DNA of 64,000 nucleotides from Candidatus Eiseniibacteriota bacterium (lineage in GTDB: Bacteria; Eisenbacteria; RBG-16-71-46; CAIMUX01; VGJL01). The stretch's first letter is position 1, and every line of letters starts with the position of its first letter. This document shows, in pieces, positions 14,791 through 39,108 of this stretch. The DNA is taken from NCBI GenBank assembly GCA_963792585.1, contig CAWBWI010000003.1:96001-160000 (forward strand), read 5' to 3'. Under the pieces are notes generated by a model that ran no database searches, was not told where the DNA came from, and was given only the letters and a program-made list of their open reading frames with translations. The position numbers were made by a program, and so were the translations under genes.

Positions 14791-15326
14791 GGCGCGAGCG
14801 CTCCGCTCGGCCCGGCGCACCCGAGCCAGCAGGGAGGATCTTGCAGATGAACTCGTTTCCCCGAGTCGTCCAGTTCATAGCCGTTGAGGATTGCCGCGGG
14901 ATGACATCGCATCAACCGATCTCCCGTCATGAGTACGGCCCGAGGAATCCCGTATCCCCGGAAAGCCCCAAGCCCGTATTCGGAGCATGTGGGTGTGAAC
15001 GGGCAACCACCCGGATTGAATGCCGTGTTGTAGGGCTTGGACAGGATGACCTGGTAGAAGCGGATCGCTGCGACCGCGGCGATCGAAGCAGTGCCCGGCG
15101 TGGATTCGACACAGGCTGCGCCGGTGCCTCCGGCCGATTCCCACTGATGTAGTCCAGCCTGTGCCGTCAACCTCGCCGGCGGGATGGAGTAATCCCACGG
15201 GGGCCACTCCGGTTGAGAAGCACCGGCCCCCATGCTCGCGAAACTCACGCCGAGCGATGACAGAACCACCGCTCCCCAAATCCTCGCCCAGCGGACACGG
15301 TCCGGGATTCTCAAGCCGCTAGCCAC
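14787..15326 (-). CDS. yidD: YidD-like membrane protein insertion efficiency factor with N-terminal extension
   Basis: IRFYQVILS...CPFTPTCSEYG...DRLMRCHP, the YidD three-Cys signature. Start is uncertain; GTG 15326 chosen. Confidence 0.75.
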   Translation of the reverse strand: MASGLRIPDRVRWARIWGAVVLSSLGVSFASMGAGASQPEWPPWDYSIPPARLTAQAGLHQWESAGGTGAACVESTPGTASIAAVAAIRFYQVILSKPYNTAFNPGGCPFTPTCSEYGLGAFRGYGIPRAVLMTGDRLMRCHPAAILNGYELDDSGKRVHLQDPPCWLGCAGPSGALAP

Positions 15327-16869: not shown

Positions 16870-16903
16870 CCTCTATCCCCCGGCCGCGGGCGAGAGACCG
16901 GTA

Positions 16904-20714: not shown

Positions 20715-20817
20715 CTGGCTATCCTTAGCACGTTTCTATGATGAGTACCTCATAGAATGATCGACATCTCGGCTTCACAGACAATAGGATCCAAATGCAC
20801 GGGGAGGAGGCGCGAGG

Positions 20818-21648: not shown

Positions 21649-22943
21649 CCGCAGCGGGTCGTCCGCCATCTCGATCGGTTCTCCGGGCGGCGAGAACGCT
21701 GCACACCACAACGGACAAGATCTATGTCTTCAGGCGACTGATCCTCACGTCGTTCCTCGTGACCCTGGCGGTCTTCGGTGCCCGCAAGGCCCATCTGCTC
21801 GACGGCGTAGAGAACCGGTGGCTCGACCTGATGGCGAACGCCGATCGGCCGAGCTTCGACGTCCCCATCGTCGTCGTAGGGATCAGCGACAAGGATTACT
21901 ACGACCCGAGTCTGTTCGGCGGCACGTCACCGCTCGAGCCGGGCGCACTGGGGCGCATGGTGTCGACCGTCCTCGCCCACAAACCGCGTGGAGTGGTCCT
22001 GGACGTGCTGATTCACCCCAGCCCTGGAGAGTCGCCTCAGCGCTCCATCGCTCGAGAAAACCTGTACCGGCTGCTCCTCGATGCCTCCGAATTTCTGCCC
22101 ATTGTCGTGGTCCGCGATCCGGCATCGGAGGCTCTTGAACGCAGGATCGAAGAACCGGGTTGGCGCACCTTCGATGCGCTGACCAAGAATCCCCACCTGA
22201 CCTGCGCGAGTGCCGGCGTCCGGCGGTCACGGGGCTACGTGCGGGCGATTCCCCTACGGTACCAAGATGATGATCCGGCAGTCGGGAACCTCCCCACAGT
22301 CCTCGGCGCCACGGTTACCGCCATGGGGCTCGAATCCGAGCACTCGAGTTCCTGGTTGTTCCGTCGTCATGAGAACGACCCGGTGAAGCCGCGGCGCATT
22401 CGGTTCTCCAAATGCTTCCTCGAGGCGGGAAGCTCCGTGGACCCGCACTACGTGGATTCGGCGTCGCTTCTTTCCCAGGCAGCGATTCCCGGTGCACGCT
22501 CCTTACTCAGGGACCAGATCGTCCTGGTGGGGGGCACATTCCACGCGGGCCGGGACGTGCTTCCCACGGTGGTCGGGGACATGGCGGGTGTCTATGTGTG
22601 GGCGGAAGCAATCGCGTCATGGATCCGAGGCGATGCCTTACGGGAACCGCTCGAGCTGATCTCATTCTTACTCGAGTTCTTCATCGGCGTCTTGGCGGGG
22701 TACTTGCTCGTGCGTTTGGGCCCGTTCTTTGGATTCGTCTCTTCTCTCGCGGTCGTCGGTCCCCTGACGATCTTCTTTTCCCTCCTGACGTTCGGTGATC
22801 GCGTGCAGTTCGTGAACTTCTTACCATCATTCCTCGGGGTCTATTTGCACTATCAGTACTATCAGATAGAGGTTCACTCGGAGATCCGCAGGCTGAAGGC
22901 GGAGATCGCCAGGCTCTCGCCGCCGGTTTCCCCTTCGGAGTAG
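21645..22943 (+). CDS. CHASE2 domain membrane sensor without cytoplasmic output domain
   Basis: N-terminal TM; IVVVGISDKDY, PRGVVLDV, LRDQIVLVGG, DVLPTVVGDMAGVYVWA; three C-terminal TMs. GTGA overlap with the upstream gene. Confidence 0.8.
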   Translation: MTAAGRPPSRSVLRAARTLHTTTDKIYVFRRLILTSFLVTLAVFGARKAHLLDGVENRWLDLMANADRPSFDVPIVVVGISDKDYYDPSLFGGTSPLEPGALGRMVSTVLAHKPRGVVLDVLIHPSPGESPQRSIARENLYRLLLDASEFLPIVVVRDPASEALERRIEEPGWRTFDALTKNPHLTCASAGVRRSRGYVRAIPLRYQDDDPAVGNLPTVLGATVTAMGLESEHSSSWLFRRHENDPVKPRRIRFSKCFLEAGSSVDPHYVDSASLLSQAAIPGARSLLRDQIVLVGGTFHAGRDVLPTVVGDMAGVYVWAEAIASWIRGDALREPLELISFLLEFFIGVLAGYLLVRLGPFFGFVSSLAVVGPLTIFFSLLTFGDRVQFVNFLPSFLGVYLHYQYYQIEVHSEIRRLKAEIARLSPPVSPSE

Positions 22944-22974
22944 GTCGTCGTGGCAGATCCGTCTGGAGGCTCGC

Positions 22975-23286
22975 ATGAAACTCGTCCTCTGTATTTTCGC
23001 GCTATTCGTGCTCTTAGCAGCAATCAGCTGCGCACACCAACCCAAGGTTCCGATGCCGGGAGTCGACGCCGCGCCGGACCAATGGAAGGAGTACTACAAG
23101 GACCAGTTCCGGGCCTTCGGTGACAAGGTGACACCGCCCGACGCACAAGCTTCGCTAGACCAGCGCGTCGCCTATGACGACGCAAAGCGAGCATTCCACC
23201 ACGCGAAGATGGTCGGCGCGGTCGTCGGTGGCTGCGCGCTCCTGATCTCAGTAGCGATCTTCCTGAGTACGATTAGCCAGCTCTAG
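22975..23286 (+). CDS. Small putative lipoprotein
   Basis: MKLVLCIFALFVLLAAISC lipobox-like signal; C-terminal TM; GGAGG RBS. Confidence 0.65.
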   Translation: MKLVLCIFALFVLLAAISCAHQPKVPMPGVDAAPDQWKEYYKDQFRAFGDKVTPPDAQASLDQRVAYDDAKRAFHHAKMVGAVVGGCALLISVAIFLSTISQL

Positions 23287-23665
23287 CGGATCCGATTTCC
23301 TACGACCTGGACCAAGCGGCGCAGCAAGGATGCCTTCCTGTGGCGTAGTTTGCCCTGGAGCTTCACTCTCGTAACCTGGCGTTCCATCTTCACAGAACGT
23401 CATTTCGGGTGCGTGACATGACCCTCAATTTGCCGGACCCGGCGCCTCGAGTGCTCGCCGCCGCACCTGTGCCAGCCCGGGCGAGGAACGGAACGCTCAA
23501 TCTGACGTTTCTACTACCGCGGTACCCATCTCACGCAGTCTTTCTGAGGATTCGGCCAGCGAGATCGACGGCACGAGCCGTCGTTCCCCACCGGGGCCGC
23601 CCCGTGGTATCATCTTCCCGGCGAAACCTGATGAGTGCCGGGCTGCCAGAAGGAGGGCCGCTCCG

Positions 23666-25549
23666 ATGAACCGCTCGCCGCGCCATGGAATCGTGCTCGC
23701 GTCCGTGCTCTTGATGATTCTGATCGCGACTGCCGCCGCACTTCCTGTGGGCCAGGCGCTTGCCGCCCCCGACCCGACTCGCTTTGGGGACAGCCCGCCG
23801 CACCGGATCATCGACAACGACGCGGTGATCGACGCCAACGATGTGCGGATGCTGGTCACCAATCGAGGGACTTTCGGCCGGGATCTTGAAGGACCGGGCG
23901 GACCCGCGGGCACGTTCTACCCGGCGGACACGGACCGAACGTGCATGTACACGGCGGGAGTCTGGGTCGGCGGCAAGGTCGGCCAGGAGATCCGCGTCAC
24001 GGTCGCGGAATACGACCTGGAATACGGGCCCGGTGTGATTCTCCCTGGCGGCGGTTGGTCCGATCCGTCGCTGCCCGAGTACCGGACCTACAAGCTGACG
24101 CCGCTCTCCGGTCCCGGTGATCCAGACTACGACGAGTGGCCCGTCGGGGACGGCGCGCCACTCGATCGAGACGGCCATCCCCTCGTCGTGGGCGACCAGA
24201 CGCTCTGGTCGGTCTTCAATGATGCAAACCCGAATGGCCACACGAACGACGCCGGCTTCACCACCCCGATCGGCGTCGAGGTAAGCCAGCTCACTTACGC
24301 GTTCGCGCTCCCCCATCCTCTGGACAGGGTGATCTTCGTGGACTACCGGCTGATCCACAAAGGGCTGCAGGCGCTCAACCCGGCGTTCGTCGGAATCTAT
24401 ACCGACATCGACCTAGGGAATGGACGCGACGACCTGGCGGGGTGCGATTCGCTCCTCGAGGCCGGCTTCACCATGAACGGCGATGACTTCGATGATGTGT
24501 ACGAAGATCGGCCGCCGACCACCGGGTTCGTCGTCCTGAAGGGACCGGCCCATCTCGCCCATCCGCTCTATGCGGCGATCGACTACGTCAACGGCCAGGA
24601 TCCGACTTCGGCCGACGCATCGTACAATCTGCTGCGGGGATTGAATACGGACGGCACCCCGATGATCGACCCGTACACCAATCGGCCGACTCGCTTCTGG
24701 CACGCCGGGAACTTCGATACCGGCGAAGGCTGGCTGGACTATTGGGTTCAAGATAAGCGGAACCTCCTCAGCATGGGTCCGTTCGCCTTCTCGCCTGGCC
24801 AGGTTGAGTCGGTTCGCGTCGCGTTCGTCGTTGGCGACAAGGACAACTGGATCGGCAGCACGGTCGACATGCTCGACGTGAGCCGGTGCGTGAAGCGCCT
24901 CAACGAGAAGGGCGCGTTCCTGCAGCCGTCGCGCTGGGCGATCGCCGGGTTCTATCCCCAGCCGTTTCATCCGATCGAGGATGCTCCGGGACGGATCTTC
25001 ATCCTCGCCCCCGAGGCGGGGCGGGTCCTGGTGCGCGTGAACGACATGCAGAATCAGCTCGTTCGCTCCTTCCCCGAGCAGGACGTGGCCGCCGGGATCA
25101 ACCCGCTCGAGTGGGACGGCAGGAACGACGGGGGCGCGATCGTCGCGTCGGGGACGTATCGGTTCGACCTGCGCGTCGTGAAGCCGGTGCTGTCGACGCG
25201 GCACCTCATCATCGATTCGGAAGAGATGAGGGTCATGGGAGGTCGCGATGTGGCGGCCGTCTCGGCTCCGGGCTTGCCTGCTGCCGGCGGGCTGAAGGTG
25301 CCGGGGATCGCGCGCGGCGGCGTGTGGATCAGGTTCGACGGGCCTAGTCCCGGTCGAGCTGCGCAGGCGGTCACGATCTATGACCTGGGCGGCCGCGTCA
25401 TCAGCCGACTCGATGTTCCGGTCGGCGAACACGGCGCGTGGTGGGATGCGCGCGATTCGGCGGGGCGAAGGCTGCCGGCGGGCATGTACTTCGTGCGGGC
25501 GGAGGGATCTGAGGCAATGGATGCGCGGAGGACGTTACTCCTGAGGTGA
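23666..25549 (+). CDS. Secreted protein with two FlgD-Ig/T9SS-like C-terminal domains
   Basis: Signal peptide; WDGRNDGGAIVASGTY and IYDLGGRVI...WDARDSAGRRLPAGMYFVR; AGGAGG RBS. Confidence 0.8.
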   Translation: MNRSPRHGIVLASVLLMILIATAAALPVGQALAAPDPTRFGDSPPHRIIDNDAVIDANDVRMLVTNRGTFGRDLEGPGGPAGTFYPADTDRTCMYTAGVWVGGKVGQEIRVTVAEYDLEYGPGVILPGGGWSDPSLPEYRTYKLTPLSGPGDPDYDEWPVGDGAPLDRDGHPLVVGDQTLWSVFNDANPNGHTNDAGFTTPIGVEVSQLTYAFALPHPLDRVIFVDYRLIHKGLQALNPAFVGIYTDIDLGNGRDDLAGCDSLLEAGFTMNGDDFDDVYEDRPPTTGFVVLKGPAHLAHPLYAAIDYVNGQDPTSADASYNLLRGLNTDGTPMIDPYTNRPTRFWHAGNFDTGEGWLDYWVQDKRNLLSMGPFAFSPGQVESVRVAFVVGDKDNWIGSTVDMLDVSRCVKRLNEKGAFLQPSRWAIAGFYPQPFHPIEDAPGRIFILAPEAGRVLVRVNDMQNQLVRSFPEQDVAAGINPLEWDGRNDGGAIVASGTYRFDLRVVKPVLSTRHLIIDSEEMRVMGGRDVAAVSAPGLPAAGGLKVPGIARGGVWIRFDGPSPGRAAQAVTIYDLGGRVISRLDVPVGEHGAWWDARDSAGRRLPAGMYFVRAEGSEAMDARRTLLLR

Positions 25550-25582
25550 CCCTCCCGGGGACGGGGAATGAACAGCACTCAT

Positions 25583-25612
25583 GATCCCGGCGGCTGTCAC
25601 TCCGCCGGGATC
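25583..25612. terminator. Hairpin between convergent genes (putative terminator)
   Basis: Perfect 11-bp stem GATCCCGGCGG/CCGCCGGGATC with an 8-nt loop; no clear U-tract. Confidence 0.5.
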
Positions 25613-25692
25613 GCCTTAATTGCCTCCCGGCCCGCGGTTTCCATTTCCTGCTCGATCTCGACGTAGGATCGGGCGACGAAAGCCCCCCGTGA

Positions 25693-25810
25693 CGCACGAG
25701 GCCCCCAAGGCGCATGACGCCTTCGCGGCGAACGACGTCCTCGGGACGAACGGTCCCTATGGCTCGAACGGTCCCTATGGCTCGAACGGTCCCTACGGCT
25801 CGAACGGCCC
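25693..25810. repeat. 18-bp tandem repeat with polar degeneration
   Basis: CGAACGGTCCCTAYGGCT x3 at 25747-25800 plus a partial copy at 25801. Degenerate in-register units at 25729, 25711 and 25693. Confidence 0.8.
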
Positions 25811-28159
25811 CCTCACTCGCCGGTTGCCCCGGTAGACCAGCAGCGGCGTCCCGTCCCTGCGCCTCCCCAGCTCGTAGCGCAGCGCGTGCGGCGCCGTCCC
25901 TCCGATCTTCACGTGGCCCCTGTGCACGCCATGCTGGTGATGACCATGACAGAGGACGGCGAGGTTGCCCGGATCGTTGCCTCCACCTTGCGAGCGGGGC
26001 TTGATGTGGTGCGTCTCGAGCTGATCGCGCCTCGTGCAGCCAGGGACGACGCACCGGTACCGGTCGCGTTCCAGGATCTTCACCCGCACCGGGACCCGCT
26101 CCGGATCCTGTTGCTCCCAGATCTCCTTCACCTCGGAGAAGAGCATCGCCATCGCTGCCCATTCGGGCATCCGCGGGATCCGGCCCGAGAGCCTCCCGGT
26201 GGGTTTCTCGCGCCGGTATGCCCACAGAACTTGCTTCAGATCGATGTAGGTCTGTCTCGGGAGCGGGAAGCGCGTCCATGTCTCCGCCCGCTGATAGGCT
26301 AACGTTTGCCGGTCCGCTTCGCCGGTCTCCGGGACCTCTTCCCAATGACGGAGCGCGAGGAGCTGGACCATCGTCTCCAGACGATCCATCAAGATGGGGT
26401 TCTCGGCCGGGTCGGTCGATCCGCCGGACGGCAGCGGAGGGATGCCGCGCAGCTGCAGCGACTCCTCGATCGCCTCCCGGTCTCCGCCAAGCGCGGCGAC
26501 AAGGGCTTCCTCGATGTCCCCCTTCGACAGCGGCCGCAGCGCATGCCTGCCGAGGTCGCACGTGCGCATGAGCATCAGCAGGCGGTACTCCCGCTGGAAC
26601 TGCCGCCAGGTGGTCTCTCGCGCGCGCTCGATGAACTCATCGACATCCTCGGTGTGCTTGAGCTGCCGGATCAGGTGCGCCTGCATCGTCGAGATGCGTC
26701 CCGTCGCGAAGGCGCGTTCCATCGCCGCGCTGCCCTCGAACATCAGCGACTCGGCCACCCGGTTGCGCGCCGAGCGCTCGGAGATCTTCAGCAGGTCCTC
26801 GACCATCCGGGCCACGGAGGAATAGCCGAGCAGCTCCACCGCCCCGACACGGCGGAGGTCGCGGATCAGGTGCGCGAGAAGCACCTTCCCGGGGGCGCGG
26901 AGCAGTTGGATCTGGCGCAGGATCAGGAGCGCTTCCTCCGGTGACCCCGGCTCCTCGGTTCGATCGATCTGCTCGACGTCCTCGAGGTACTCGGCCACGA
27001 GGGCGAGGGTCTGTCTGGCATGCGCGATCGCCTCGGGACGGACGGGGATGGCCACCGGCGGACGTCTCTCGATGACCGGACCCAGCGCGGGCCGCCTCGG
27101 AGGCGGGCCGTCCCCGCCTATCCCCGGCCAGGCGACCTCGGCAAGCATCGCCTCGATGCACTCGTGGATGGGCGCCTCGTGGCCGAGGACCATGCGGGTG
27201 TGCTCCATCATCTCGTCGAAGGAGACCTGGAAACCGAGGGGGTGCTTGAAGGCGAAGGGGACCATCTCGGGGTCGTCGCAGTGTTCATCCACGAAAATCG
27301 AATCGGGCACCGGGGCCTCATCCCCATCGCGTTCCCATAGCTCCTTTTCCAGCGCCGCCAAAGCTCCGGCCGACATCGACTCCTCATCCTCCGTGCAGGC
27401 GATTTCCCCCCTCTGCCCCGCCTCCGCCCGCCTGCGGGCGCGCTCTTCTTCGCTTCGCGCCCGATAGCGGAGCTGGTCCACGGGGACCGCGCTAATCCTC
27501 TCGATGAATGCTCGAATCAACTCGTCAGGAACGGGAAGCGCCTCGATGAGCCGGGCGATGTAGGGGAGCTGGCAGGCGCTGATCCCGCCACCGAGGAAGG
27601 CCCGTTCGAGCTCGGGGTGCTTCGCGAGCACGCGGTGCAAGGCAAGGCGGGATCGGGTCGTGCGCGGCCGCAGGCCGAGCGTCTCGAGGGCGAGGCTGCT
27701 GATGGAGGAGAAACCGCAGCGCTGCACGCGCCCTCCCTCGGAGAGCCAGGCGAGCATGCGCGCTTGCGAGCGGACGAATCGTGCCTCGGCGTGACGCGTG
27801 GAGAGGGTCGCCGCAGTGAGCGAGCGAACCAGCGTGGCGCTGGCGAGGGTGGGTCCAGCGGGCTGCGTAGCGGGCCGAGTAGCAGGCTCCTGAACGGGCT
27901 GGTGAACAGGCGGGAAAGAGGGCGATGCGATAGAAGTCGATGGGGCGGCAGCGAGCGCGGAGTCCTCGGCGCGCGGCGATGCGATGGAAGTCGATGAGAC
28001 GCCATCCCCCGCGGACTCCTCGGCGTGCGACGATGCGTCCCCGGAGCGCGCAGCATCGTCCGCCCCGTAACGAGGAGTGTCCTCGCGACAGGTCCACGCG
28101 TGCGGGAACCCGCGCTCCACGGGGCTTTCCGGTGGGTATGTAAGGATGGTGGCGGCCAT
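25793..28159 (-). CDS. HNH endonuclease with two DUF222-like regions
   Basis: C-terminal RDRYRCVVPGC...HHIKPRSQGG...NLAVLCHGHH. Two internal units G(F/Y)SS...ERAF..G.IS. Confidence 0.8.
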   Translation of the reverse strand: MAATILTYPPESPVERGFPHAWTCREDTPRYGADDAARSGDASSHAEESAGDGVSSTSIASPRAEDSALAAAPSTSIASPSFPPVHQPVQEPATRPATQPAGPTLASATLVRSLTAATLSTRHAEARFVRSQARMLAWLSEGGRVQRCGFSSISSLALETLGLRPRTTRSRLALHRVLAKHPELERAFLGGGISACQLPYIARLIEALPVPDELIRAFIERISAVPVDQLRYRARSEEERARRRAEAGQRGEIACTEDEESMSAGALAALEKELWERDGDEAPVPDSIFVDEHCDDPEMVPFAFKHPLGFQVSFDEMMEHTRMVLGHEAPIHECIEAMLAEVAWPGIGGDGPPPRRPALGPVIERRPPVAIPVRPEAIAHARQTLALVAEYLEDVEQIDRTEEPGSPEEALLILRQIQLLRAPGKVLLAHLIRDLRRVGAVELLGYSSVARMVEDLLKISERSARNRVAESLMFEGSAAMERAFATGRISTMQAHLIRQLKHTEDVDEFIERARETTWRQFQREYRLLMLMRTCDLGRHALRPLSKGDIEEALVAALGGDREAIEESLQLRGIPPLPSGGSTDPAENPILMDRLETMVQLLALRHWEEVPETGEADRQTLAYQRAETWTRFPLPRQTYIDLKQVLWAYRREKPTGRLSGRIPRMPEWAAMAMLFSEVKEIWEQQDPERVPVRVKILERDRYRCVVPGCTRRDQLETHHIKPRSQGGGNDPGNLAVLCHGHHQHGVHRGHVKIGGTAPHALRYELGRRRDGTPLLVYRGNRRVRGPFEP

Positions 28160-28175
28160 CAGGAGTGTATACTAA

Positions 28176-28234
28176 CAAACAAACGTTCGGTTCCACAAGA
28201 ACAAACTGCAAAATGCGAAAGAAATATACGTTCG
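28176..28234. promoter_or_regulatory. Two LexA/SOS-box-like sites in the AT-rich promoter of the HNH gene
   Basis: CAAACAAACGTTCG (28176-28189) and GAAATATACGTTCG (28221-28234) compared with the GAAC-N4-GTTC consensus. Confidence 0.5.
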
Positions 28235-28353
28235 GACGAAGCGATGAGCAACAGATCAGTCTGAGGACATGGGTAACACCTACACGTTCCAAGAATGGCA
28301 GCGATACCGGGCGCTTCTCAACCAGCAGCCATCAGCGATCCCCGATCTGATCC

Positions 28354-30792
28354 TCACTCCACCACGAACCACTTCGCCGTATCGCTCCCACCGGGCACGT
28401 CAAGACGCAGCAGATATGCACCCGCCGGCAGTGCGCGACCCTTGCTCCCGCTGACGTCCCAGCGAAGCAGCCGAGTCCCAGCCTGCTGGCCCGTCAGTTC
28501 CTTGCGCGCGACCTCCCTGCCCTGCGAATCGAACAGGCGTAGCAGGCCGCCTCCAGGCCGCGGCACGGTGACAGAGAGGTTCAACCACCGCCTCCCGGGA
28601 TTCGGCCACGCACGGACGTGGACACCCGCGGGAAGGATCGCGCGCGCGCTCACGGGACCATACCGTCCAACCGATCCCCGCGAGTCGAACGCTTCGACCG
28701 CATACTCATAGAGCGCCCCGGGCTCGACCGTCCCATCCAGATAGCTGCCCTCAGGCGATTCCGCGGGCATCCGCGGCGACACGCCCGTCCATGCTCCTCC
28801 GGCACCCGCAGTCCTCCGTTCGACCTGCACACCCTCCAGCAGAATCCCCTCGGGAATCGTCCAGGAGATCAGGATTCCGTCCGCGCGAGCTGTCGCCATC
28901 GGCGCCAGCAGAACCGGCGTCGGCTCATCGGGACAGTGGAGGGCGGCAACGTTGAAGGACTCGAAACCGCCGAGGTAGAGGTATTCGTCCGACCCGCAGA
29001 TGGAGAATCCCCCGCCTCCCATCGTCGTTCCGCCGACCAACGTCGGAAGGCTGGGATCGGAGATGTCGGCGACCATCAGCCAGCCCCCCGTCACCACGTA
29101 TGCGTAGGCGCCAGACCCGATGACATCCTGACCATAGTCGACCATCCCCCCGATTCCCTCGAGTTGCGGGGCATCCGGGTTGGAGACATCGACCACGGCG
29201 ACGCCAGGGAATCCCCCGACGAGCAGGACGTGTTTTCCCGATACGGCAAGGCCATTGATATAACTATCCATCTGGATCGCGGGATGCGCCCATCCGCCGA
29301 TGTCCCCAATGTACAGCCACCCACCCCACGAGCCGACGTACATCTTCGTCCCCGAGATCACAATACTCCTGATCCAGTCGTCCGGAGGCTGGGTGTACAG
29401 AAGATCGGGATGCGTGGGATCACTCACATCCACGACATCGATACCGTGCTGCGTGCCGAGGTAAGCGATCCCGTCGTGCACGGCAATCCCCTGGGTCGTC
29501 CACGCTGACCTGGCAGTTCCCACGATCACCGGCGTCGTCGGGTCGGACACATCGATGACCTGAAGGCCGTACCATGCGTCAGCGACGTAGGCATACTGGC
29601 CGAGAACCACGACACCCTGGGCCTGCCCTGGCGTGTCGACCGATCCAACAACCCTCGGGGCATCCGGTGCGTCGACGTCGACGATCGAGAGTCCCTCGGT
29701 GTCGCATGCCAGGTAAATCAAATGGCCGTCGACGGCAGCGTCATACGCCGCCTCCGGGAGAGGAACCGTGCCCACCAGTGGGGGTGACACAGGAACGGAC
29801 ACGTCGATCACCTGCATGCCGCTTCCCCAGCATGCTGCGTATGCATAGTTGCCATCGACTGCCACGTCGAACGTGTAAGAACCGGTCTTCGCGGATCCCA
29901 CGATCCTCGGAGATGTGGGATCCGAGACATCGGCGACCTCCAGGCCGGCCGACTCATCGCCGAAGAAGACATGGTTGCCGCTGACCGCTATGCCGGAGGC
30001 ATACCTCTGCGCGGGCGCGCTGCCGATGAGGATCGGATTCGTCGGGTCCGCGATGTCGAGCACCTGCAGACCGGCATCACCCCCACCTACATAGGCGTGT
30101 GTACCGGAAATTGCGATCCCGTGCGCCGAACCGGGAGGGTCCAGTCCTCCGGCGAGGAATGCCGCGTCCGGGTCCAGGATATCGATCACGGCGACTCCAG
30201 CATCGAGCGCACCAACGAAGGCGAATGCTCCACTGAGGGCGACGTCGACGGGGCGACCTCCCGGGACAGCCACGACACTCGTGACCTGAGGAGCGGCGGG
30301 GTCCGAGACGTCGATGACCACGAGACCGTCGGTCCGATCGGCGACATAGGCCCGCGATCCCCGGACCGCCACGGCGAAGGCATCGCTGGTGGAGACTCCA
30401 CCGAGTCGGACCGGAGCGGACGGTCCGGACACATCGAAGATCTGGAGTCCCGCCGAGGCTGCCGCGACGTACGCCAGCGTTCCGGCTACGGCGACCCCGT
30501 TCGCATCGTCTGCAACAGAGGCCTGGCCGACTCGTGATGGATGGGTCGGGTCATGCACATCGATGATCTGCAACCCACGCACGACGTCCGTCGCATAGAC
30601 GTACCCGCCGGCGAAGGCCACGTCCCAGATGGGCCCCTCCGTGCCAATCCCTCCAACCCACCGGAGCGACCGGGAGTAATCGAGGCACTCGCCAGAGGCG
30701 GAGGAAGTCGGAAGACCCATCAGCATCACGCAAATGGCCGGGACCGACCAAACGCCAAGCTTGGATGTCCAGATAAGGCAAGCAGGTTTCAC
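28354..30792 (-). CDS. LVIVD-repeat secreted protein with FlgD-Ig/T9SS-like C-terminal domain
   Basis: More than 10 repeats of V..xGxYAYVA....GLQ(V/I)xDVSDPxxP; C-terminal WPNP...FDSQGR...WD...LPAGAY. Start re-called at GTG 30792. Confidence 0.85.
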   Translation of the reverse strand: MKPACLIWTSKLGVWSVPAICVMLMGLPTSSASGECLDYSRSLRWVGGIGTEGPIWDVAFAGGYVYATDVVRGLQIIDVHDPTHPSRVGQASVADDANGVAVAGTLAYVAAASAGLQIFDVSGPSAPVRLGGVSTSDAFAVAVRGSRAYVADRTDGLVVIDVSDPAAPQVTSVVAVPGGRPVDVALSGAFAFVGALDAGVAVIDILDPDAAFLAGGLDPPGSAHGIAISGTHAYVGGGDAGLQVLDIADPTNPILIGSAPAQRYASGIAVSGNHVFFGDESAGLEVADVSDPTSPRIVGSAKTGSYTFDVAVDGNYAYAACWGSGMQVIDVSVPVSPPLVGTVPLPEAAYDAAVDGHLIYLACDTEGLSIVDVDAPDAPRVVGSVDTPGQAQGVVVLGQYAYVADAWYGLQVIDVSDPTTPVIVGTARSAWTTQGIAVHDGIAYLGTQHGIDVVDVSDPTHPDLLYTQPPDDWIRSIVISGTKMYVGSWGGWLYIGDIGGWAHPAIQMDSYINGLAVSGKHVLLVGGFPGVAVVDVSNPDAPQLEGIGGMVDYGQDVIGSGAYAYVVTGGWLMVADISDPSLPTLVGGTTMGGGGFSICGSDEYLYLGGFESFNVAALHCPDEPTPVLLAPMATARADGILISWTIPEGILLEGVQVERRTAGAGGAWTGVSPRMPAESPEGSYLDGTVEPGALYEYAVEAFDSRGSVGRYGPVSARAILPAGVHVRAWPNPGRRWLNLSVTVPRPGGGLLRLFDSQGREVARKELTGQQAGTRLLRWDVSGSKGRALPAGAYLLRLDVPGGSDTAKWFVVE

Positions 30793-31297
30793 GACGGCCC
30801 CCTTCTCACGAGGAAGAGCACCCCGACTCCGGCTCCCAGGTCGGTATCGCAAGCGCACGAACTACATCCGGAATGCCGCACCTGATTATACTCTGTATTG
30901 GTAGGCTGGACTCTCGGAATCTCCGCAGCGCAATGCTTCGTACCCGCGCGAACAGCCACCATGCCGCGCCTCCCACACGTCCCCGACCCGGTGAACGGGC
31001 GCACGATCGGGAAGGCAGCGCTTCATCGAGAACAGCGCCCGATCGGCAGGAGCGATCCCGGCGGCGGCGAGCGGCTCCGCGATTTCATCGAGGCGCAGGG
31101 GCGAGCCGCGCAGGCTCAATGGCTTCCCTCCAGCGAAACGGTGAACGCTCTCGGCATAAGCGAACCCCAGGGAGGACGCCACACGAGACCGCGTTCTCCT
31201 GGTTGACGCGGCCGCGATTGTGGCGTGCCGCGCGCGCTACTTACCAATCCCGAGAGCCCGGTGGTGCGTGTCTGCTGGGACTATCTATCCGCGCACG

Positions 31298-32074
31298 CTA
31301 CATAGGACCGCTTGACGATTCGGCGCTCAATGCCTCCCTAAGAGCGGTTTGGAAATGATCGAAACCAAGTTGATCGGCTAGTCCCAGCAGGATTCTCTCT
31401 TCCGGCGCGTTGGACGCCGATCCGAGTTCCTCAGGATTCGCCGCTTCTGCGAATCTCACGATCGCTGTCCGCAGTGCCTCGCGATCAATCCCGGCAAGGA
31501 CCGGCGTGTTGGCTGTGGCCATCGCGACGAAATTGGTCGCTACATTGCGGCACAGCTCGGCACGGCGATCCATGACCTCACGTTTCGTCACTCTCCCACG
31601 ATCGATGCTGAGGATCAGGTCCTCTTCATACACCGATCCGAAACCCATGTGCTCATATTGAAGTCTCTCTCCTCTGGGCACGCGGAGCTCTCCGGAGAAC
31701 CATGTGGCCGCTACGCGGTCACCCGCCTCGGGAAAGAGGAAGGTGAGAGGTACCTGGCGCGGGTTGAGTGCGCGCTCCACCAGACCGGCCCAACCTCCAC
31801 CGGATGGGAGAGCCTCGAGGTTCTCACGGAGGCTGATGTCCATTGGATGCGATGCCCTCAGCGGCTTGGTCGCGATCCAACCCTTGAGAGCTACCAAGAA
31901 GAGAACATCATCTTCGATCTCCCAGGTAGCGACATAGCCCCGCCAGTAGGACGTGATGGCGGACGCGAACGGCCAACCCTTTCCCCGTCTGGCGATGTAA
32001 GGGTCGAGGGGGGTGGAATAGAGTGAGACCTTCTCGCCATCGACGATGAGAATGTCGGGCTGTTGTGCGGTCAC
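31298..32074 (-). CDS. Conserved hypothetical protein
   Basis: MTAQQPD...YWRGYVATWEI...ATWFSGELRVPRGE...HMGFGSVYE; globular and protein-like, resembling a widespread uncharacterised family. Confidence 0.7.
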   Translation of the reverse strand: MTAQQPDILIVDGEKVSLYSTPLDPYIARRGKGWPFASAITSYWRGYVATWEIEDDVLFLVALKGWIATKPLRASHPMDISLRENLEALPSGGGWAGLVERALNPRQVPLTFLFPEAGDRVAATWFSGELRVPRGERLQYEHMGFGSVYEEDLILSIDRGRVTKREVMDRRAELCRNVATNFVAMATANTPVLAGIDREALRTAIVRFAEAANPEELGSASNAPEERILLGLADQLGFDHFQTALREALSAESSSGPM

Positions 32075-32549
32075 CGGAGTTCCCTGCTCGCCGCATCCAG
32101 GATCTGGTCTGGGTGAACCAGGCTGCCCAGTAGGCTCTTGGGGTATGAGAACATTGAGTTCACATCCATCGGCAAGCCTCGCCTCCAGCGTCAGCTATGC
32201 CGAGAGGCTATCCCCATACCGGAAGTCGGTCAATGGTGAGCAGTGCGCGGGGCTTGAAGTCGATCGGGTTCCGGAACAAGTTTGCCATCGATAAGCCTGC
32301 AACCAAGGCTCTGAAAGGAGGTCGAACGACAGACTGACCGTAGTCACGTGTCATCCTGATGACCGCCGATGCGATCGGGACACGCCGGGCATGAGCGCTG
32401 GAGCGCGGGGATCGCGGGCCCGCCAGATCGGAATTGGCGTGGCCCTTCTGGCTCCCCGCGAGTATCATCAGGTGCGCGATATCCGGAGAACGGATGGTGA
32501 CTCGTCGGCGGTCCAATGTCTGGATAGAGTTCTTAGGAGGCAAAGGGCA

Positions 32550-34031
32550 ATGAGTCCATGGCTGCGCCGTCTGCTCGTCACCGGGGCCCTCATCATCGCC
32601 TATCGTCTCGGAATGGGCATTCCACTGCCGGGAATCGGTGCGATCTGGGATTGGATCGTCTCGACAGACCCAAGGAACATTGGTGGGGGCGGCTACGGCC
32701 TGGGGCGTGTATCGTTTCTTGGGCTTGGTATATCCCCGTACATCGCAGCCTCGGTCTTCCTGTTGCTCCTGAGCGGCGCAATCGCACCGCTGCGCCGGCT
32801 GCGCGACGGGAACGAGGCGCAACGCTCTCGATTCACCGCCTATCTCTTGGGTATGACGGCTTTGGTTGCATTGGTTCAGGGGCTGGGGATCGCCATCTAT
32901 TGCCAGAGCTTGAGGCACCAAATCGATCCCGCCGGCTCCACGAATTGGTCCGGCTATCGCATCGCCATCATGCTCCTGCTCGTCGCGGGGTCTTTCGTCG
33001 CAGTCGGGATTGCTCACTTCATTACAAAGTATGGCATCGCTAACGGTGTTGCGATTCTGGTTGCCATTCCTTTGCTGACCGAGGCCATCCCCAGGTTCCG
33101 GACTTCCATCCTCAATCCCCGCGACTCTCAGGCACCACCCCCGCTGCTGGCCATTCTCGTGCTGGGCATTGGGATTCTCCTCTCCATCTTGATCATCCAG
33201 TCGTGTCGAAAGCTACCCTTGCAGTCGGAAGGGAACACGGGCGCCGTTAGTGACAACTCAGAGGAACTGCCGTGGCTGCCCCTTCGAATGCAGCCCGCAG
33301 GGGCCGCGCCGTTGTTCTTCGCCGACAATTTGCTTCACGTGCCGGCGACCGTCCGCTCGCTTCTCGAACCAGACGCGACCGGACCGCTCATGTCGGCTTG
33401 GTTGTACACGGGGGTGAGTAGCCTCCTGATCATTGCCTCCAGCATCTTGTTCGCGTCCTGGATCTTCAATGGAGCTGATCTGGAGGGTCGCCTGAATGCA
33501 TGGCGCGTGCGAATCAAAGACGACGCAGGCGATCTGTGGACCGCGCGACGTCTGGAGCAGGTGCAGGAAAAGCTGATCTGGGTGGGCGCCCTGATGCTCG
33601 TGCTGGTAGGTGCGTTGCCGTTGCTCGGGATCCGGTACGAGCGGTTTCTGGAGGGGATCGCTGGTCTGGTGGATGCCCACCTGGTGGTGCTCACAGCCGT
33701 CGTGCTGGAGATCTGGAGAAACCTGCGCGCCTGGCGGAGGCATTCGCGGAGTGGTTCGTGGGCCTCGGTCTATCGAAGCGATATCGCGTTGGAAGCCCGG
33801 CTTGTCTGTCATGCGCTGCGCCAGGCAGGTTTGACTGCCGTAATGCACTCAGCCAGGCCAAGTCCAGTAATCGGCTCCTTCGGGTGTTGGGAGGTCTGCC
33901 GGCCGCAATTCCCGTCCGTGGTCGTCTATTCCCGGCTTGGCTCCGGCCATGACGAGGTCCATGTGCCGGCTGACGTGAGAGTGCAGGCGGAGGAGGTACT
34001 CGCACGGATCGCGCCTCCTCCTCATGTGTAG
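32550..34031 (+). CDS. Divergent SecY paralogue with C-terminal DUF2007-like domain
   Basis: ATG 32550 after AGGAGG. YRLGMGIPLPGI, LGISPYIAAS, ITKYGIANGVAI and LPLRMQPAGAAPLFFA align with SecY TM1, TM2, TM5 and TM7. Tail VYRSDIALEARLVCHALRQAG...VHVPADVRVQAEEVL. Confidence 0.8.
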   Translation: MSPWLRRLLVTGALIIAYRLGMGIPLPGIGAIWDWIVSTDPRNIGGGGYGLGRVSFLGLGISPYIAASVFLLLLSGAIAPLRRLRDGNEAQRSRFTAYLLGMTALVALVQGLGIAIYCQSLRHQIDPAGSTNWSGYRIAIMLLLVAGSFVAVGIAHFITKYGIANGVAILVAIPLLTEAIPRFRTSILNPRDSQAPPPLLAILVLGIGILLSILIIQSCRKLPLQSEGNTGAVSDNSEELPWLPLRMQPAGAAPLFFADNLLHVPATVRSLLEPDATGPLMSAWLYTGVSSLLIIASSILFASWIFNGADLEGRLNAWRVRIKDDAGDLWTARRLEQVQEKLIWVGALMLVLVGALPLLGIRYERFLEGIAGLVDAHLVVLTAVVLEIWRNLRAWRRHSRSGSWASVYRSDIALEARLVCHALRQAGLTAVMHSARPSPVIGSFGCWEVCRPQFPSVVVYSRLGSGHDEVHVPADVRVQAEEVLARIAPPPHV

Positions 34032-34288
34032 CGGCCTACTGTCCCTCCCATGCGTGTGTCACGAAGACCATGAAGGGAGGTCACCCCTCGTCACCGCGGC
34101 ATCCGCCACGCCGGCCGTCCCGACGAACCCAAACGTCATCCGCACCGCGAGCGCTTGCGTCTACACACGCCCGTATGGCGACAATGAGACATTATTCACA
34201 TGACCAATCGGTTGGAATGACTCATCGCAATGGTGGTAGGATATCCGCGCGATTCGTTCACGTTCCGGTGTCGAACAAGGAGGGTTCC

Positions 34289-34693
34289 ATGCCAACCACC
34301 GCCAATACCACTTCGTATATTGCCGGCGCTCAACGGACTCAGGGCCTCGTCGCTCCGGCAGTGATGGGCGAGCACGTTCTTGTCAAATTGCGCGGGCCGG
34401 GGGTATTCGTGTGCGCAGAGGTGAGCAGGCAAGGCGATCCGGCGGGAGTTTCCTTTGTCTCCCTCGATCTCGACAACCGCAATGTCGTATCCGTGTCGTT
34501 CGAGGCCGTCGGCAACTGGGGATTGACGCAGAACAATCCATACGGGCTCGTACGATTGAAGGGCAGCGGGATCGACACCTTGGCCATCGGGTACCAACTC
34601 CCCCTTCGTTTCGAGAAGGAGCTGGTGCTCAAGGTCACCGTGCAGGAGATCGGCATTCCCCAGATTCTCGCGAATGTAATTCACGGGATTTGA
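34289..34693 (+). CDS. Hypothetical beta-rich protein
   Basis: ATG 34289 after AAGGAGG; 134 aa with protein-like composition. Confidence 0.6.
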   Translation: MPTTANTTSYIAGAQRTQGLVAPAVMGEHVLVKLRGPGVFVCAEVSRQGDPAGVSFVSLDLDNRNVVSVSFEAVGNWGLTQNNPYGLVRLKGSGIDTLAIGYQLPLRFEKELVLKVTVQEIGIPQILANVIHGI

Positions 34694-34821
34694 GGGCGCG
34701 CGCCGCGCGAGGGGATAATGGAACGGTGCGCCGGCGATCCCACCGATCGTCGGCCCCGAGACTGCGCGCACTGACGTGGAAATCCTTCTCAGACGACGTC
34801 TCCGGGCCTTCGAGGTGCGTC

Positions 34822-35265
34822 TCAGCGGGTCAACAGGGCCGCCACTTGCTGCAGCAGGGCCCGCCCGTCACTGTCCTTCACAACATGAACTACTTTGTGC
34901 GACAAGATGGACAATTCCCTCTCCAGGTCCTTCTCATCCAGGACAGTGTACAGGATGATCGGAACGGTCGTGAGCTCAGGAGTGCTGCGGAGTCTTGCCT
35001 GGCATCTGAGTCCGGCGCGATAGAACCCCTCTGCCTCCACGTCGCGCGGGGGCCTGGGCATGTTCGGTGAGGGCTCGGTCCAGGGCACCATAACGTCCAT
35101 GATGATCATGTCGGGAGGGTTCGCCACCCAGCCTGTGATCGCTTCGTAGAACTCATGCTCCGTGTGGATTTCCTCGATCAAGGCCTCCGGGTACTCTCCC
35201 GAAAGCAGCTCCTTAATGTAATCAACCTGCATCTCGTCGTCTTCGACTACGACAAACCGCGTCAT
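34822..35265 (-). CDS. Single-domain response regulator (receiver)
   Basis: VVVEDD, IIMDVM (phospho-acceptor Asp), PIILYT and conserved Lys; no output domain. Confidence 0.85.
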   Translation of the reverse strand: MTRFVVVEDDEMQVDYIKELLSGEYPEALIEEIHTEHEFYEAITGWVANPPDMIIMDVMVPWTEPSPNMPRPPRDVEAEGFYRAGLRCQARLRSTPELTTVPIILYTVLDEKDLERELSILSHKVVHVVKDSDGRALLQQVAALLTR

Positions 35266-35277
35266 GCTACCTCACTC

Positions 35278-37659
35278 CTAGACCGGGAACACCAGCCGGA
35301 CAACCGTCCTCCCCCCGTCGTCGGTCGGGACGACCACCAGCTTTCCACCATGCGCCTTCATGACACTGCTGACGATCCACAAACCGATGCCTGTTCCCTC
35401 CCCCAGCACCTGCTTCGCGTTTGCGCCCTGCCAACCCCGATTCGAGCACTGGGCGACGTCCTCGGCAGTGATGGGTATACCGACGTTCGTCACCGCGACG
35501 CAGTTTTCTCCATCCGCCCTTTCAGCGAGGACGGTCACCCTCGTGTTCGAGTAGCTGTACTTCGCCGCGTTGTCGAGCACGTCCATTACCATCTGCTCCA
35601 ACAGGTCCCGATCGACGACGATCCCCCGAGAGAAGTAGGTCGTCACGCTTTCGGTTTCGACCTCCATCTCCAAATGCCGGCGGCTGTTGATCGTACACTT
35701 AGTATCGGCCGTTGCCTCAATCAGCAGTCGGACTAGGCTCTCTACGGAGATGGATGTCGGCTTCAGCTTGAGATTGCGACCGCTCGCGAGGTCGGCAAAC
35801 ACCCGGATATTCCGGGTCACCCGCATTGCTTTTGCGCACAGCCCTTTGATGGCCGCAAGCTGACCGCGCAATTCATCTTCCTGGGGCATCCGCCGAATGG
35901 CTCCGCGGGATCGGATGACAGCCATGTTGATCGGGCTCTTCAATTGGTGCCCGAGGTCCAGGAAGGTCTGTGTTTCTTGAGCCTGCATCGCGCTGACGTC
36001 GCTCAGGGTCGAGATGAGATGGTGATACAATCCGAGCTGCTGCCCGATCAACTCCACGACTTTCGGCGCCTGGAGGGGCAGCGCCCTCAGGCCGAGACTT
36101 CGCACGGTCAGCACGCCCCGGATGCTGCCGGGGCTCGTTCCGACTGCAGTCACGATCATTGCATCGACGTCGGGTACGCTCCGATCAGCGAGACCCAAGC
36201 ACTCTTGACGATTGAAGACAGCCGCTTCCCCAGTTCGGAAGACCTCCTCAGCAGCGCTGCGGGCCGTTCCGCCCGCCGTCGCAGAGGCCGCGATTCCAGC
36301 CCGAATTTCTCGGCCCAACCCTAAGGTGGCCACAACCATGAGCTTATTGGTCGCTTCGTCGTAGAGCTTCACGTCGAGAGCATCAGCACCCGGTAGCCCT
36401 GCCTTCATGAGGCGGAGGGACCTTCCGAGCAAACGCGCGCTTGAAGGACGCTTTCTCGACAGCTCCCGCGAGAACGCGCGGTTCAGTGCCGTCACCGTGT
36501 CCACGAGCTGCTGCCATGATTGCGTCTCCTGCTGCGCGCGCATGAGGTCGATCCACATCTTCCATGCGTGTGCGATGCGCGCAGCGACCAGAAGGAGCAA
36601 CCGCAGTTCCGGCTCGCCAAAGAAGTAAGGCCCGCGCACAGCGGTGCAGCAGCGGATCGCACCCAGAACACTGGAGCCTGCCTTCAACGGAGCCGCCATA
36701 AAGCTCAGCGGCGGCATGGCAGTCTTTGCATCGATCTTGAGGAATCGTCGCGCGGACTCGTTGATGTCCAGGGAGTCATTCCACTGAATGCCGGGGTAGG
36801 TCTCCTGATTCTCCGCATCGCTGGGCACAAAAGTGGCCAGGTCGAAGATATTGACGGAGCCTCCTTTCGCGAGAACGTACCCCGTCAGACCCTCGCTCAG
36901 GGCCGCGCGATACCGCTGCTTCGGCATCTCCTCGGGCCAGGTAGTTCCTACAAGGTCGTAATAGCCTGGGGCTGAGAAGGGATCCTCGAGGAAAACGGAG
37001 GTCTCAAGGCACTGCAGCGCCCCTTGAACATGTTTTGTGACGGCGGTGATCGCTTGTTGGAGGGTTCCCTTGCTGGAGGGGTCGTGCGTGTTCGTGACCT
37101 CCGCCTGCTGAACAAGGTCGTCGACTTCGATGATGAGATTCAGCAGCACGCGGTCTCGGATCATCTGATACGTTGCAGGGAGTCCCTGGGCAAGGCCGAT
37201 CGCGTCGGATACCTCCGCATCCGTGAATCCACTCTGGGCGGCAGTACGATAGAAGTTGATCGCTCCACGGCCTCCGTCCGGGAATGTGACTGGCACAACA
37301 CAGAACGCGTTGATCGAGAACCGCGACCAGAAGGACGTTCCTCGGAAGACCCCCGGCTCCCGGCTAACGTCCGCGACAATGCGCAGCTCCTGCTTCATGA
37401 TCGACTCGCCGGTCACCGATTTGCTCACGGGCATGTTCTTGAAGGCGTATACCGCGTCCCCGGGAAACCAATGCGCGAGCGTTGAAAGCGTCTGCTCGCC
37501 GCCTGCCTCTCCCTGTCCTCTCGGCTGAACAGCCTCCCACACAATGACGCCCTCGGCCCCCATCTGCCGGGTGGCGGCTTCGAGGACGCGGCCGAAGGTG
37601 GAGAGGCCCCTGCCCTCCGAGGCGATGCGCATGAGCTCGTGCAGGTTCGCAGGCATCAT
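35278..37659 (-). CDS. Cytoplasmic multi-GAF sensor histidine kinase
   Basis: Two to three GAF-like regions; H-box LGHQLKSP, N-box VLDNAAKYS, G2 GTGIGL. Start re-called at about 37659 (MMPANL). Confidence 0.85.
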   Translation of the reverse strand: MMPANLHELMRIASEGRGLSTFGRVLEAATRQMGAEGVIVWEAVQPRGQGEAGGEQTLSTLAHWFPGDAVYAFKNMPVSKSVTGESIMKQELRIVADVSREPGVFRGTSFWSRFSINAFCVVPVTFPDGGRGAINFYRTAAQSGFTDAEVSDAIGLAQGLPATYQMIRDRVLLNLIIEVDDLVQQAEVTNTHDPSSKGTLQQAITAVTKHVQGALQCLETSVFLEDPFSAPGYYDLVGTTWPEEMPKQRYRAALSEGLTGYVLAKGGSVNIFDLATFVPSDAENQETYPGIQWNDSLDINESARRFLKIDAKTAMPPLSFMAAPLKAGSSVLGAIRCCTAVRGPYFFGEPELRLLLLVAARIAHAWKMWIDLMRAQQETQSWQQLVDTVTALNRAFSRELSRKRPSSARLLGRSLRLMKAGLPGADALDVKLYDEATNKLMVVATLGLGREIRAGIAASATAGGTARSAAEEVFRTGEAAVFNRQECLGLADRSVPDVDAMIVTAVGTSPGSIRGVLTVRSLGLRALPLQAPKVVELIGQQLGLYHHLISTLSDVSAMQAQETQTFLDLGHQLKSPINMAVIRSRGAIRRMPQEDELRGQLAAIKGLCAKAMRVTRNIRVFADLASGRNLKLKPTSISVESLVRLLIEATADTKCTINSRRHLEMEVETESVTTYFSRGIVVDRDLLEQMVMDVLDNAAKYSYSNTRVTVLAERADGENCVAVTNVGIPITAEDVAQCSNRGWQGANAKQVLGEGTGIGLWIVSSVMKAHGGKLVVVPTDDGGRTVVRLVFPV

Positions 37660-37738
37660 GTACCGAAGTATCCGCGGGCCGGCAGCTTGGATGCACCGCC
37701 ACCTCCACGCAACGCAGGACTCGTCCAACAGCTCCGCG

Positions 37739-38371
37739 TCAAGGCAGGACCTTGATTCGGCCGAGCACCTGCCGCCTGTTGATGTCGATGGCCGAGCTGA
37801 TGTCCGTGAGGACTTCGTCTCCGGTAATGCGGACGCAGTAGGCAATGTGGCCGTTTACCGCGGCGATTAGAGAACGTTCCGACTGATAAGGATGTGCGCG
37901 GCGTACGTCTTCGATCTTTTCCGCCAGCTCATTTGCAACTGGGGACATCGAATGCTCCATTCGGATGCACATCACTTCCCCGTTGCATAGCGTCCTCAAG
38001 ATCCGGTACCTGGTGACCATCGGAGGGATGAACCCGAGCGCCTGTTTCCAGTAGACCCCGCTGTCCCGTGACAGGACAAAGTGAAGATGCGGCAGGCAGG
38101 TAACGACCCAGGTGGGCCAGAGAAACCGATCGGCAAGGACCACGAGGTACCAGTCCGAGTGCTTTCCCCGCTCCTGCTCCAGGAGCGCGCGCATCCGCGG
38201 ACGCCGGTCCGGATCGCCTTCAATTGCTGCCGCGAATTCCAGAACCTGCCGCGCCCAGGCCGTCGCCGTCGCATGTCGTTTGGTGGCGGCGCCCACACGG
38301 AGAACTGCGAGGAACAGGGTCAACGCCAATCCCGCCGCGACGGCTGCGGTTACAGTTTCCTGAGCCATCAT
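37739..38371 (-). CDS. Hypothetical protein with N-terminal membrane anchor
   Basis: Start re-called at ATG 38371 (ATGA overlap with the upstream stop); N-terminal hydrophobic helix. Confidence 0.55.
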   Translation of the reverse strand: MMAQETVTAAVAAGLALTLFLAVLRVGAATKRHATATAWARQVLEFAAAIEGDPDRRPRMRALLEQERGKHSDWYLVVLADRFLWPTWVVTCLPHLHFVLSRDSGVYWKQALGFIPPMVTRYRILRTLCNGEVMCIRMEHSMSPVANELAEKIEDVRRAHPYQSERSLIAAVNGHIAYCVRITGDEVLTDISSAIDINRRQVLGRIKVLP

Positions 38372-38733
38372 TGCAGGAATGACAGGAAGGGCTGCTGTTC
38401 CACGACGTGCATGTAGAACCGCTCCACCGCGTGCACGATCGAAATGCCACCAATGGCCCCGCAGGACAGCTCGACGCAGCCGTGCGGGGTGCTTCCCGTT
38501 GCGACGATATACCCGAATGCGGAAGAGAAGATGATACTGACTATTATTGTCAGCAGGAGGAACGGAAAGTGCTTGGACGAAGACTCGAGTGTGACCGGGT
38601 ATACCGCAGCGAGGAGGGTGATGGACTTGTGATTGAACCCGTCGGCAAACCACGCCTCCAGTAGGGCAGGCAAGAGCGGAAGGACCATCAGCACGAGGAT
38701 GCTCGATGTGTAGTGGTGCCACGGTTTCAGCAT
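38368..38733 (-). CDS. Small four-TM membrane protein
   Basis: 121 aa, four hydrophobic segments, GGGAGG RBS. Confidence 0.6.
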   Translation of the reverse strand: MLKPWHHYTSSILVLMVLPLLPALLEAWFADGFNHKSITLLAAVYPVTLESSSKHFPFLLLTIIVSIIFSSAFGYIVATGSTPHGCVELSCGAIGGISIVHAVERFYMHVVEQQPFLSFLQ

Positions 38734-38942
38734 TCGCGACCTCCCGTCGTTAGGACAGCCTGGAGTCCAGGCCGAAGGTGTTCATTCGATTGCGGATCCG
38801 TATCTGCGAGGCATTGTTGATCCGCGGGAAGGCGGCCTCCCAAGGTCGACGCGGGCTTGTTCCCCCTCGTCCGCACTGGCACAGGGTCTTTCGGGATCAA
38901 CGGGGTTCGCGGGCTGCGTTCGAGCGATTCGCCGTTCGCAGT

Positions 38943-38955
38943 GGGCCTCCGGGTC
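38943..38955 (+). repeat. 13-bp direct repeat GGGCCTCCGGGTC, right copy
   Basis: Exact match to 12762-12774; about 155 bp downstream of the drmMI stop. Confidence 0.6.
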
Positions 38956-39108
38956 TGGCCAACGCACGTGATCCTCATGCTCGCCGCGTTCATCGCGTGG
39001 CCAATGTACACCACGGCCGCAATAGTTTCCAGTCGAAGTCGCCCCTGCGAGCAAGCGTGCTTGTAACGCTTACCGGTCGCTTGTCGGGTTCCCAGATACC
39101 CGGGGCCT

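Follow-up and report, generated by a model that had tools for sequence, protein, structure and literature searches.

SecY/Sec61 occurs universally and, with SecY2 as the main known exception in bacteria, is regarded as a marker that serves one purpose and is present in one copy. The 64,000-nucleotide stretch of DNA analysed here (the window) holds an orphan SecY-like gene that fits neither description, and raises the question of what a second SecY with its own cytoplasmic tail might do. The gene and the SecY-like part of its product were delimited as follows.

32535..32540, + strand: Shine-Dalgarno sequence AGGAGG, 9 nt before the ATG (from the sequence)
32550..34031, + strand: whole gene, a SecY paralogue with a fused DUF2007-like tail (protein P0001), ATG at 32550 to TAG at 34031, 493 aa
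32550..33737, + strand: body of ten TM helices with the SecY fold, residues 1-396 (Pfam; model pTM 0.90; VIA match to 8y9y_Y at Z 27.0, covering model residues 1-402)

A longer frame from 32391 is an unlikely start: the metagenomic homologues P0002 and P0003 (77% and 71% identity) begin at the same methionine as the 32550 frame and are likewise 493 aa long, without gaps. Neither a promoter consensus for the gene nor a tRNA was found. Matches in related-DNA contigs begin at 32518-32519 (five records, three runs) and end at 34058 (three records), with unlike sequence some 30 nt beyond the gene on either side; the three runs may contain the same organisms and do not count as independent. Variants of the gene in bioreactor contigs stood at 82-91%. 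Of 345 differences in related contigs 40 were itemised, and 22 of these fell on third codon positions by hand count. Contigs of relatives in two RNA libraries lie over the gene, which may reflect transcription.

The SecY signature of P0001 is clear, with 131 bits to Pfam PF00344 (cut-off 32.2) over residues 55-362 and an identity of about 21-24% to solved bacterial SecY proteins. At 130.3 bits it stays well below the equivalog cut-off of the NCBIfam SecY model TIGR00967 (253.6), and it likewise falls short of both SecY2 models (52.9 versus 249.6 bits for TIGR02920 and 65.9 versus 353 for NF009082). The gene is a member of the SecY superfamily that fails the tests for housekeeping SecY as well as for SecY2. 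A separate secY sits between rplO and adk (G000:C3:1214312-1215628), the place of the spc operon, and the genome (84% complete) contains one secA locus, one secE and one secG, with neither SecA2 nor Asp2. Among the scanned neighbours of the gene there are no ribosomal-protein, secA or asp genes. The neighbour and genome scans thus bear out the initial annotation, which had described an orphan outside any ribosomal-protein operon, with no secA2 or asp nearby and distinct from SecY2.

Three close relatives differed at only 11 of 107 family-conserved sites, compared with 180 of 386 other sites (p 4e-13). For each pair none of 500 neutral simulations gave substitutions as conservative as those observed, and just 1/500 and 0/500 of the simulated sequences stayed free of stop codons. 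From these substitution patterns we conclude that the gene is under purifying selection; the relaxed selection that the initial annotation had named as evidence against itself is not what the relatives display.

Ordinary SecY filled the results of word-based protein searches, and the family to which the gene belongs came to light only in a complete HMMER scan of representatives clustered at 50% identity. Among the best 150 of 3,440 matches, a tail HMM found the same tail in at least 45; together with P0002, P0003 and a copy from another genome of the phylum (G012) these formed an alignment of 48 members, all of which matched PF00344. For comparison we took every second remaining tail-less match of at least 395 aa (56 rows) plus the SecY of the phylum and E. 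coli SecY; 13 fragments were left out, and the tail-less rows were not each confirmed as housekeeping SecY. In a FastTree phylogeny of the SecY body only, the 48 members formed one clade (SH 0.99) far from the phylum's own SecY. This separate, deep position is again at odds with a decaying duplicate. Fifty-five tailed proteins formed a larger clade in the same tree (support 0.988); long-branch attraction may have affected both groupings. Beside the 48-member family branch seven further matches with other DUF2007-like tails, recognised by eye (P0063, P0085, P0086, P0105, P0123, P0131 and P0149), whose tail inserts are different and shorter; the clade therefore has several subtypes. A zinc-ribbon-like cysteine module, N-terminal or preceding the tail, was seen by alignment and weak Pfam matches in P0039, P0045, P0047, P0060, P0062, P0082 and P0162.

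Within the phylum the family occurs in 4 of 206 genomes, intact in three (G000, G012 and G020) and decayed in one (G027), and none of five genomes from the same taxonomic family carries it. A single clade of the three intact same-order copies was rejected (p-AU 3.6e-8; 23 rows, an earlier tree having already been inspected), which points to separate acquisitions. Outside the phylum the range rests on Atlas clusters, where SecY+DUF2007 combinations were commonest in Acidobacteriota and Myxococcota; a narrow-pattern scan of the genome collection returned two known loci only. Two of four metagenome loci (L017 and L018) hold family members; L019 and L020 proved to be chance matches, and a weak match in G092 (E 3.8e-4) was rejected, none of the three having a SecY-like ORF. 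No adjacent gene is common to the six loci compared, two of which hold remnants only. The decayed copies lie at L006:1670-2454 (G027) and L017:7446-8261; one has deletions and a frameshift, and the other consists of a C-terminal half beside another decayed gene. The G012 copy (L004:2673-7990) directly follows a bacterial microcompartment locus on the same strand (shell proteins, aldehyde dehydrogenase and aldolase, identified by eye). Relatives of the tail were found in neither plasmids nor phages, and of 27 candidates in viral contigs none was confirmed. Among 443 candidates of 51-181 aa no free-standing tail turned up, although this search was weak and is no proof of absence.

Comparison with E. 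coli SecY and the tail-less set located the parts of the channel that have lost their usual constraints.

32634..32711, + strand: shortened, non-conserved plug region, 26 aa versus 32 in E. coli (alignment; residues 46-49 are the only stretch with pLDDT below 50)
33222..33272, + strand: tip of the C4 (6/7) loop, basic ribosome/SecA contact lost, hypervariable, net charge -4 over the aligned segment (alignment; pLDDT 56)
33510..33542, + strand: tip of the C5 (8/9) loop, PGIRPG/R357 motif replaced, hairpin length kept at 35 aa (alignment, model)

R357 is kept in 3 of 48 family members compared with 50 of 57 tail-less SecY proteins, P358 in 7 versus 49 and G359 in 6 versus 56, while T362 and Y429 are retained by 8% and 4% of the family. 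The loops of P0001 align to residues 244-264 and 352-362 of E. coli SecY, with net charges of -4 versus +4 and -1 versus 0, respectively. Family-wide, the median charge is -1 versus +3 for tail-less SecY at the C4 tip and -1.5 versus +1 at the C5 tip; the first half of the C5 hairpin is more basic (+2 versus 0). The C4 tip varies at 82% of its sites among the three close relatives, and across the family its length lies between 13 and 44 aa. The initial annotation had stated that these docking loops became acidic. The loop sequences it quoted are indeed in the translation and the basic contacts are lost throughout the family, but the family as a whole does not conserve an acidic character, and its C4 tip is hypervariable. 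Judged from the alignment, the change in C4 and C5 is better put as lost constraint than as selected acidity.

In E. coli, R357 cross-links to FtsY, SecA and uL23 (PMC4602035), and C4/C5 mutants of SecY cripple translocation (PMC13537251). Family-wide loss of these motifs supports in part the proposal that the channel is uncoupled from ribosome and SecA. Full uncoupling from the ribosome does not follow, as an E. coli R357E mutant still opened upon ribosome binding (PMC3689939). With the C5 hairpin length and its basic first half preserved, some contact with the ribosome or SecA is possible.

The sealing elements are altered as well, the plug being short and the C-half of the pore ring relaxed. 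The plug region has a median length of 26 aa in the family (n = 47) versus 32 aa and is unconserved. The pore-ring isoleucines are likewise rare in the 48 members compared with the 58 reference sequences (I86, 13 versus 55; I191, 7 versus 52; I278, 8 versus 57; I408, 9 versus 57). All six ring positions of P0001 are hydrophobic (I61, I65, V167, V171, F256 and V380), with isoleucine at two only, and a fully hydrophobic ring occurs in 19 of 48 members. In E. coli, super-active channels arise upon changes at F64, F67, I86, I195, I278, G402, G403 and I408 (PMC13537251), and plug deletions conduct ions (PMC3689939); a pore of this kind would need another seal. A conserved polar pore lining indicating a solute was not found. 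The framework of the channel persists: TM2b, the GNG of TM5, the start of TM7 and the hydropathy of all ten TM helices are kept, as are R242 and, in 45 of 48 members, a small residue at the position of E. coli G240, which we take to be a SecE-contact site.

Alongside these losses the family has acquired conserved features of its own.

32763..32846, + strand: family-specific end of TM2b with the C2 loop (LLLSG...LRRLRDG...F), putatively in contact with the tail or lipid (alignment)
33759..34019, + strand: tail, residues 404-490, beta-alpha-beta-[insert]-beta-alpha, DUF2007-like or ring-building-motif-like (Pfam, fold model, structure searches)
33846..33947, + strand: conserved 34-residue insert, predicted cap or plug (alignment; pLDDT of full-length versus tail-alone models)

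In the basic motif of the C2 region, R85 is present in 98% of the family compared with 9% of canonical SecY. Further family-conserved positions are A155, A168 and A383. The charges of the C2 loop and the tail did not covary. The tail had been described as a DUF2007-like domain following TM10. This assignment stood for the family, with 17 of 48 members matching Pfam DUF2007 (PF09413) at E<=0.05 (best 1.5e-5), but P0001 itself gave no match at E<=1, P0002 and P0003 scored 15-17 bits against a gathering score of 25.7, and the claim had not included the insert. Modelled alone (pLDDT 83), the tail adopts a beta-alpha-beta-insert-beta-alpha fold. The top Foldseek row was 2hfv (probability 0.98, E 0.066), presumably a DUF2007 structure. 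With VIA, the first ring-building domain of PrgK (Z 9.9 over 59 aa, rmsd 1.6) and that of EscJ (Z 9.7 over 63 aa, rmsd 2.1) ranked above 2hfv (Z 8.0 over 73 aa, rmsd 3.8). Scores of this size are modest for so small and common a fold, as unrelated small folds typically reach Z 7-8 at best; the sequence identity is 12-18%. A reading of the tail as a PII protein with its T-loop was not favoured (Foldseek E>=0.64; PII-like chains Z<=5.9). Sequence searches with the tail gave no PDB match (best E 0.33) and, for the tail alone, none in the Atlas.

Conservation within the family peaks in the insert (mean 0.64), which lies between strands 2 and 3 of the tail. The insert is 34 aa long in 46 of 48 members, and R436, G442, W447, E448, P452, L463 and G466 are conserved in 92-100% of all 48.

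An AlphaFold model of the full chain (pLDDT 89.5, pTM 0.90, best of five) displayed ten TM helices, and its body superposed on 8y9y_Y over 384 residues (rmsd 3.6). The SecY fold on which the initial annotation depended is therefore predicted with confidence. Between the tail-alone and the full-chain model the pLDDT of the insert rose from 63-75 to 93-96 (same 48 sequences, slightly different alignments). High model confidence for the insert thus depends on the presence of the channel, which suggests a built-in cap, and the whole-chain pTM implies a defined position of the tail. The confidence values suggest that the insert sits in the cytoplasmic mouth of the pore, though it may pack beside it. 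Gating by the protein's own cytoplasmic domain, as initially proposed, thus gained support in silico. The body resembles substrate-engaged SecY (Z 24-27) more closely than resting 5aww (Z 20.9) or 1rh5 (Z 15.8), a comparison confounded by species and resolution, given that resting and peptide-bound T. thermophilus SecY scored 20.9 and 20.6. The top structural rows presumably represent the SecY of one organism, solved only with SecA.

Taken together, we tentatively favour, with somewhat less than even confidence, an intact and selected second SecY devoid of conserved SecA/ribosome docking motifs that likely acts as a self-gated pore rather than as a general export channel. Such a protein would assemble with the host's single SecE, as the small residue at the G240 position hints, and its tail is predicted to pack on the channel and to order its insert there. 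The insert might then take over sealing from the degenerate plug and pore ring and occupy the space of SecA or the ribosome, by which, to go by the motif loss, the channel would be poorly served. Should a ligand, a partner, proteolysis or thiol chemistry at the insert's cysteine free the insert, a pore that opens easily could let through ions, small solutes or a limited range of peptides. A more far-reaching version, possible but held with somewhat greater reserve, is that a widespread bacterial family turned SecY into an auto-inhibited, signal-gated pore with its own pseudo-substrate plug, which moves as a single gene and whose main job is not protein export.

Several other explanations were weighed against the self-gated pore. 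The strongest of them, although we consider it unlikely, is a specialised accessory translocon or insertase whose tail serves as receptor or adaptor in place of SecA/ribosome docking and which handles a few clients via a pre-opened lateral gate. The preserved TM2b, TM5 GNG, TM7 start and helix hydropathies as well as the engaged-like model are in line with this idea, and in the E. coli screen SecY mutations affected insertion far less than translocation (PMC13537251). Yet the gene is not accompanied by genes for a client, motor or chaperone, the genome has one secA only, and no energy source is visible. The PrgK and EscJ matches, ranking ahead of 2hfv, could instead mean that the tail is an oligomerisation module building rings or arrays of SecY-like units as a scaffold or larger pore; we regard this as improbable in view of the Z values typical of unrelated small folds, the low identity and an insert that is already ordered in a single-chain model. 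Somewhat less probable again is a non-conducting modulator of the housekeeping translocon, for instance one that sequesters SecE or diverts FtsH or YidC as a decoy. It would make sense of the retained small residue at the back of the channel and of R242, and SecY lacking SecE is degraded by FtsH (PMC8082313), but it leaves the invariant tail insert and the new C2 motif unexplained, and a ten-TM decoy would be costly. A decaying duplicate, or a stand-in for a frameshifted operonic secY, is very improbable. The operonic secY does read in several frames in the assembly and two of the loci hold remnants; against this stand the purifying selection and the deep clade apart from the phylum's SecY. 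Moreover, secA lies in five pieces and rpoB, rpoC, fusA and several ribosomal-protein ORFs, named by eye, are also fragmented, so that the frameshifts of operonic secY are most likely assembly indels. A full-length operonic-type match is present in 39 of 40 relatives, the match in the remaining one covering positions 1-305 of 306. The assembly is rich in indels in general, the broken core genes lying at G000:C3:1195000-1220000 and G000:C1:856097-857598, and care is needed with 'pseudogenes' in this genome.

The surroundings of the gene bear on a further alternative, namely an anti-phage membrane effector that opens on infection (abortive infection).

12825..39108, no strand assigned: cargo region of about 26 kb, flanked by drmMI and drmA of a class 1 DISARM operon and containing the gene (PADLOC)

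PADLOC matched DrmD, DrmMI, DrmA, DrmB and DrmC, with drmMI at 39109-42498 and drmA at 9270-12824; the complete class 1 set (drmD in pieces) occupies 6653-12824 and 39109-48222 of the window on the - strand and is split by the cargo. A location inside a split defence operon, the patchy gain and loss of the family and the suitability of a self-inhibited pore for such a role speak for an effector. Nevertheless, PADLOC gave no match for any of three family members tested, and a defence context was present at this locus only: the other five loci have different neighbours (microcompartment genes, an Rnf operon, ilvE and others; ORFs read by eye), and the 26-kb cargo encodes mostly signalling and secreted proteins. 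We therefore judge this explanation a long shot, on a par with the oligomerisation module, and the phage protection suggested at the outset found no support beyond the location itself. The cargo location together with a codon adaptation at the 3rd percentile of 1636 long ORFs in the genome fits recent acquisition in a variable region. The cargo further includes a TPR, OmpA, CHAT, TPR, CHASE2 module (window 13786-23286), a 788-aa protein with a C-terminal HNH domain that is possibly a mobile element (25793-28159, - strand) and a GAF-GAF histidine kinase accompanied by a lone receiver protein (34822-37845, - strand). The ORFs flanking the gene, 31298-32074 (- strand, 258 aa) and 34289-34693 (+ strand, 134 aa), have no Pfam or PADLOC match and are not common to the other loci.

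If the self-gated pore is correct, a selected, mobile family without motor and ribosome motifs and with a built-in cap would constitute a third kind of bacterial SecY, and would reveal a way to close and open the channel that needs neither SecA nor a ribosome. Several members are annotated as 'preprotein translocase subunit SecY', which may mislead marker-gene work. None of the titles and abstracts listed by a literature search that covered few subscription journals describes the family.

With housekeeping SecY (E. coli 5abb, 8y9y and 5aww) the protein shares the ten-TM fold with colinear helices, the PG, G-x-x-PY, GNG and G-x-x-P motifs and the C4/C5 hairpins; it differs in lying outside the spc operon, in its degenerate C4/C5/Y429 contacts, GGTS motif and plug, in the fused tail and in being dispensable, as its rarity in the phylum indicates. 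SecY2 resides in a glycoprotein-export locus, which is not the setting of the present gene. SecY2, too, is a divergent extra SecY that accompanies a housekeeping one (PMC12445088); P0001 differs from it in scoring lower to SecY2 than to SecY, in the missing SecA2 and Asp2 partners and in the fused tail. The tail has the beta-alpha-beta-beta-alpha core in common with DUF2007 and the first ring-building domain of PrgK/EscJ, whereas the 34-residue insert and the fusion to the cytoplasmic end of SecY set it apart. As an analogy of function only, GlnK-AmtB comes closest: according to PMC3198391, a small cytoplasmic domain blocks a channel with a long loop there, whereas in the protein described here the cap would act in cis and is built on a tail that PII-like chains match only poorly.
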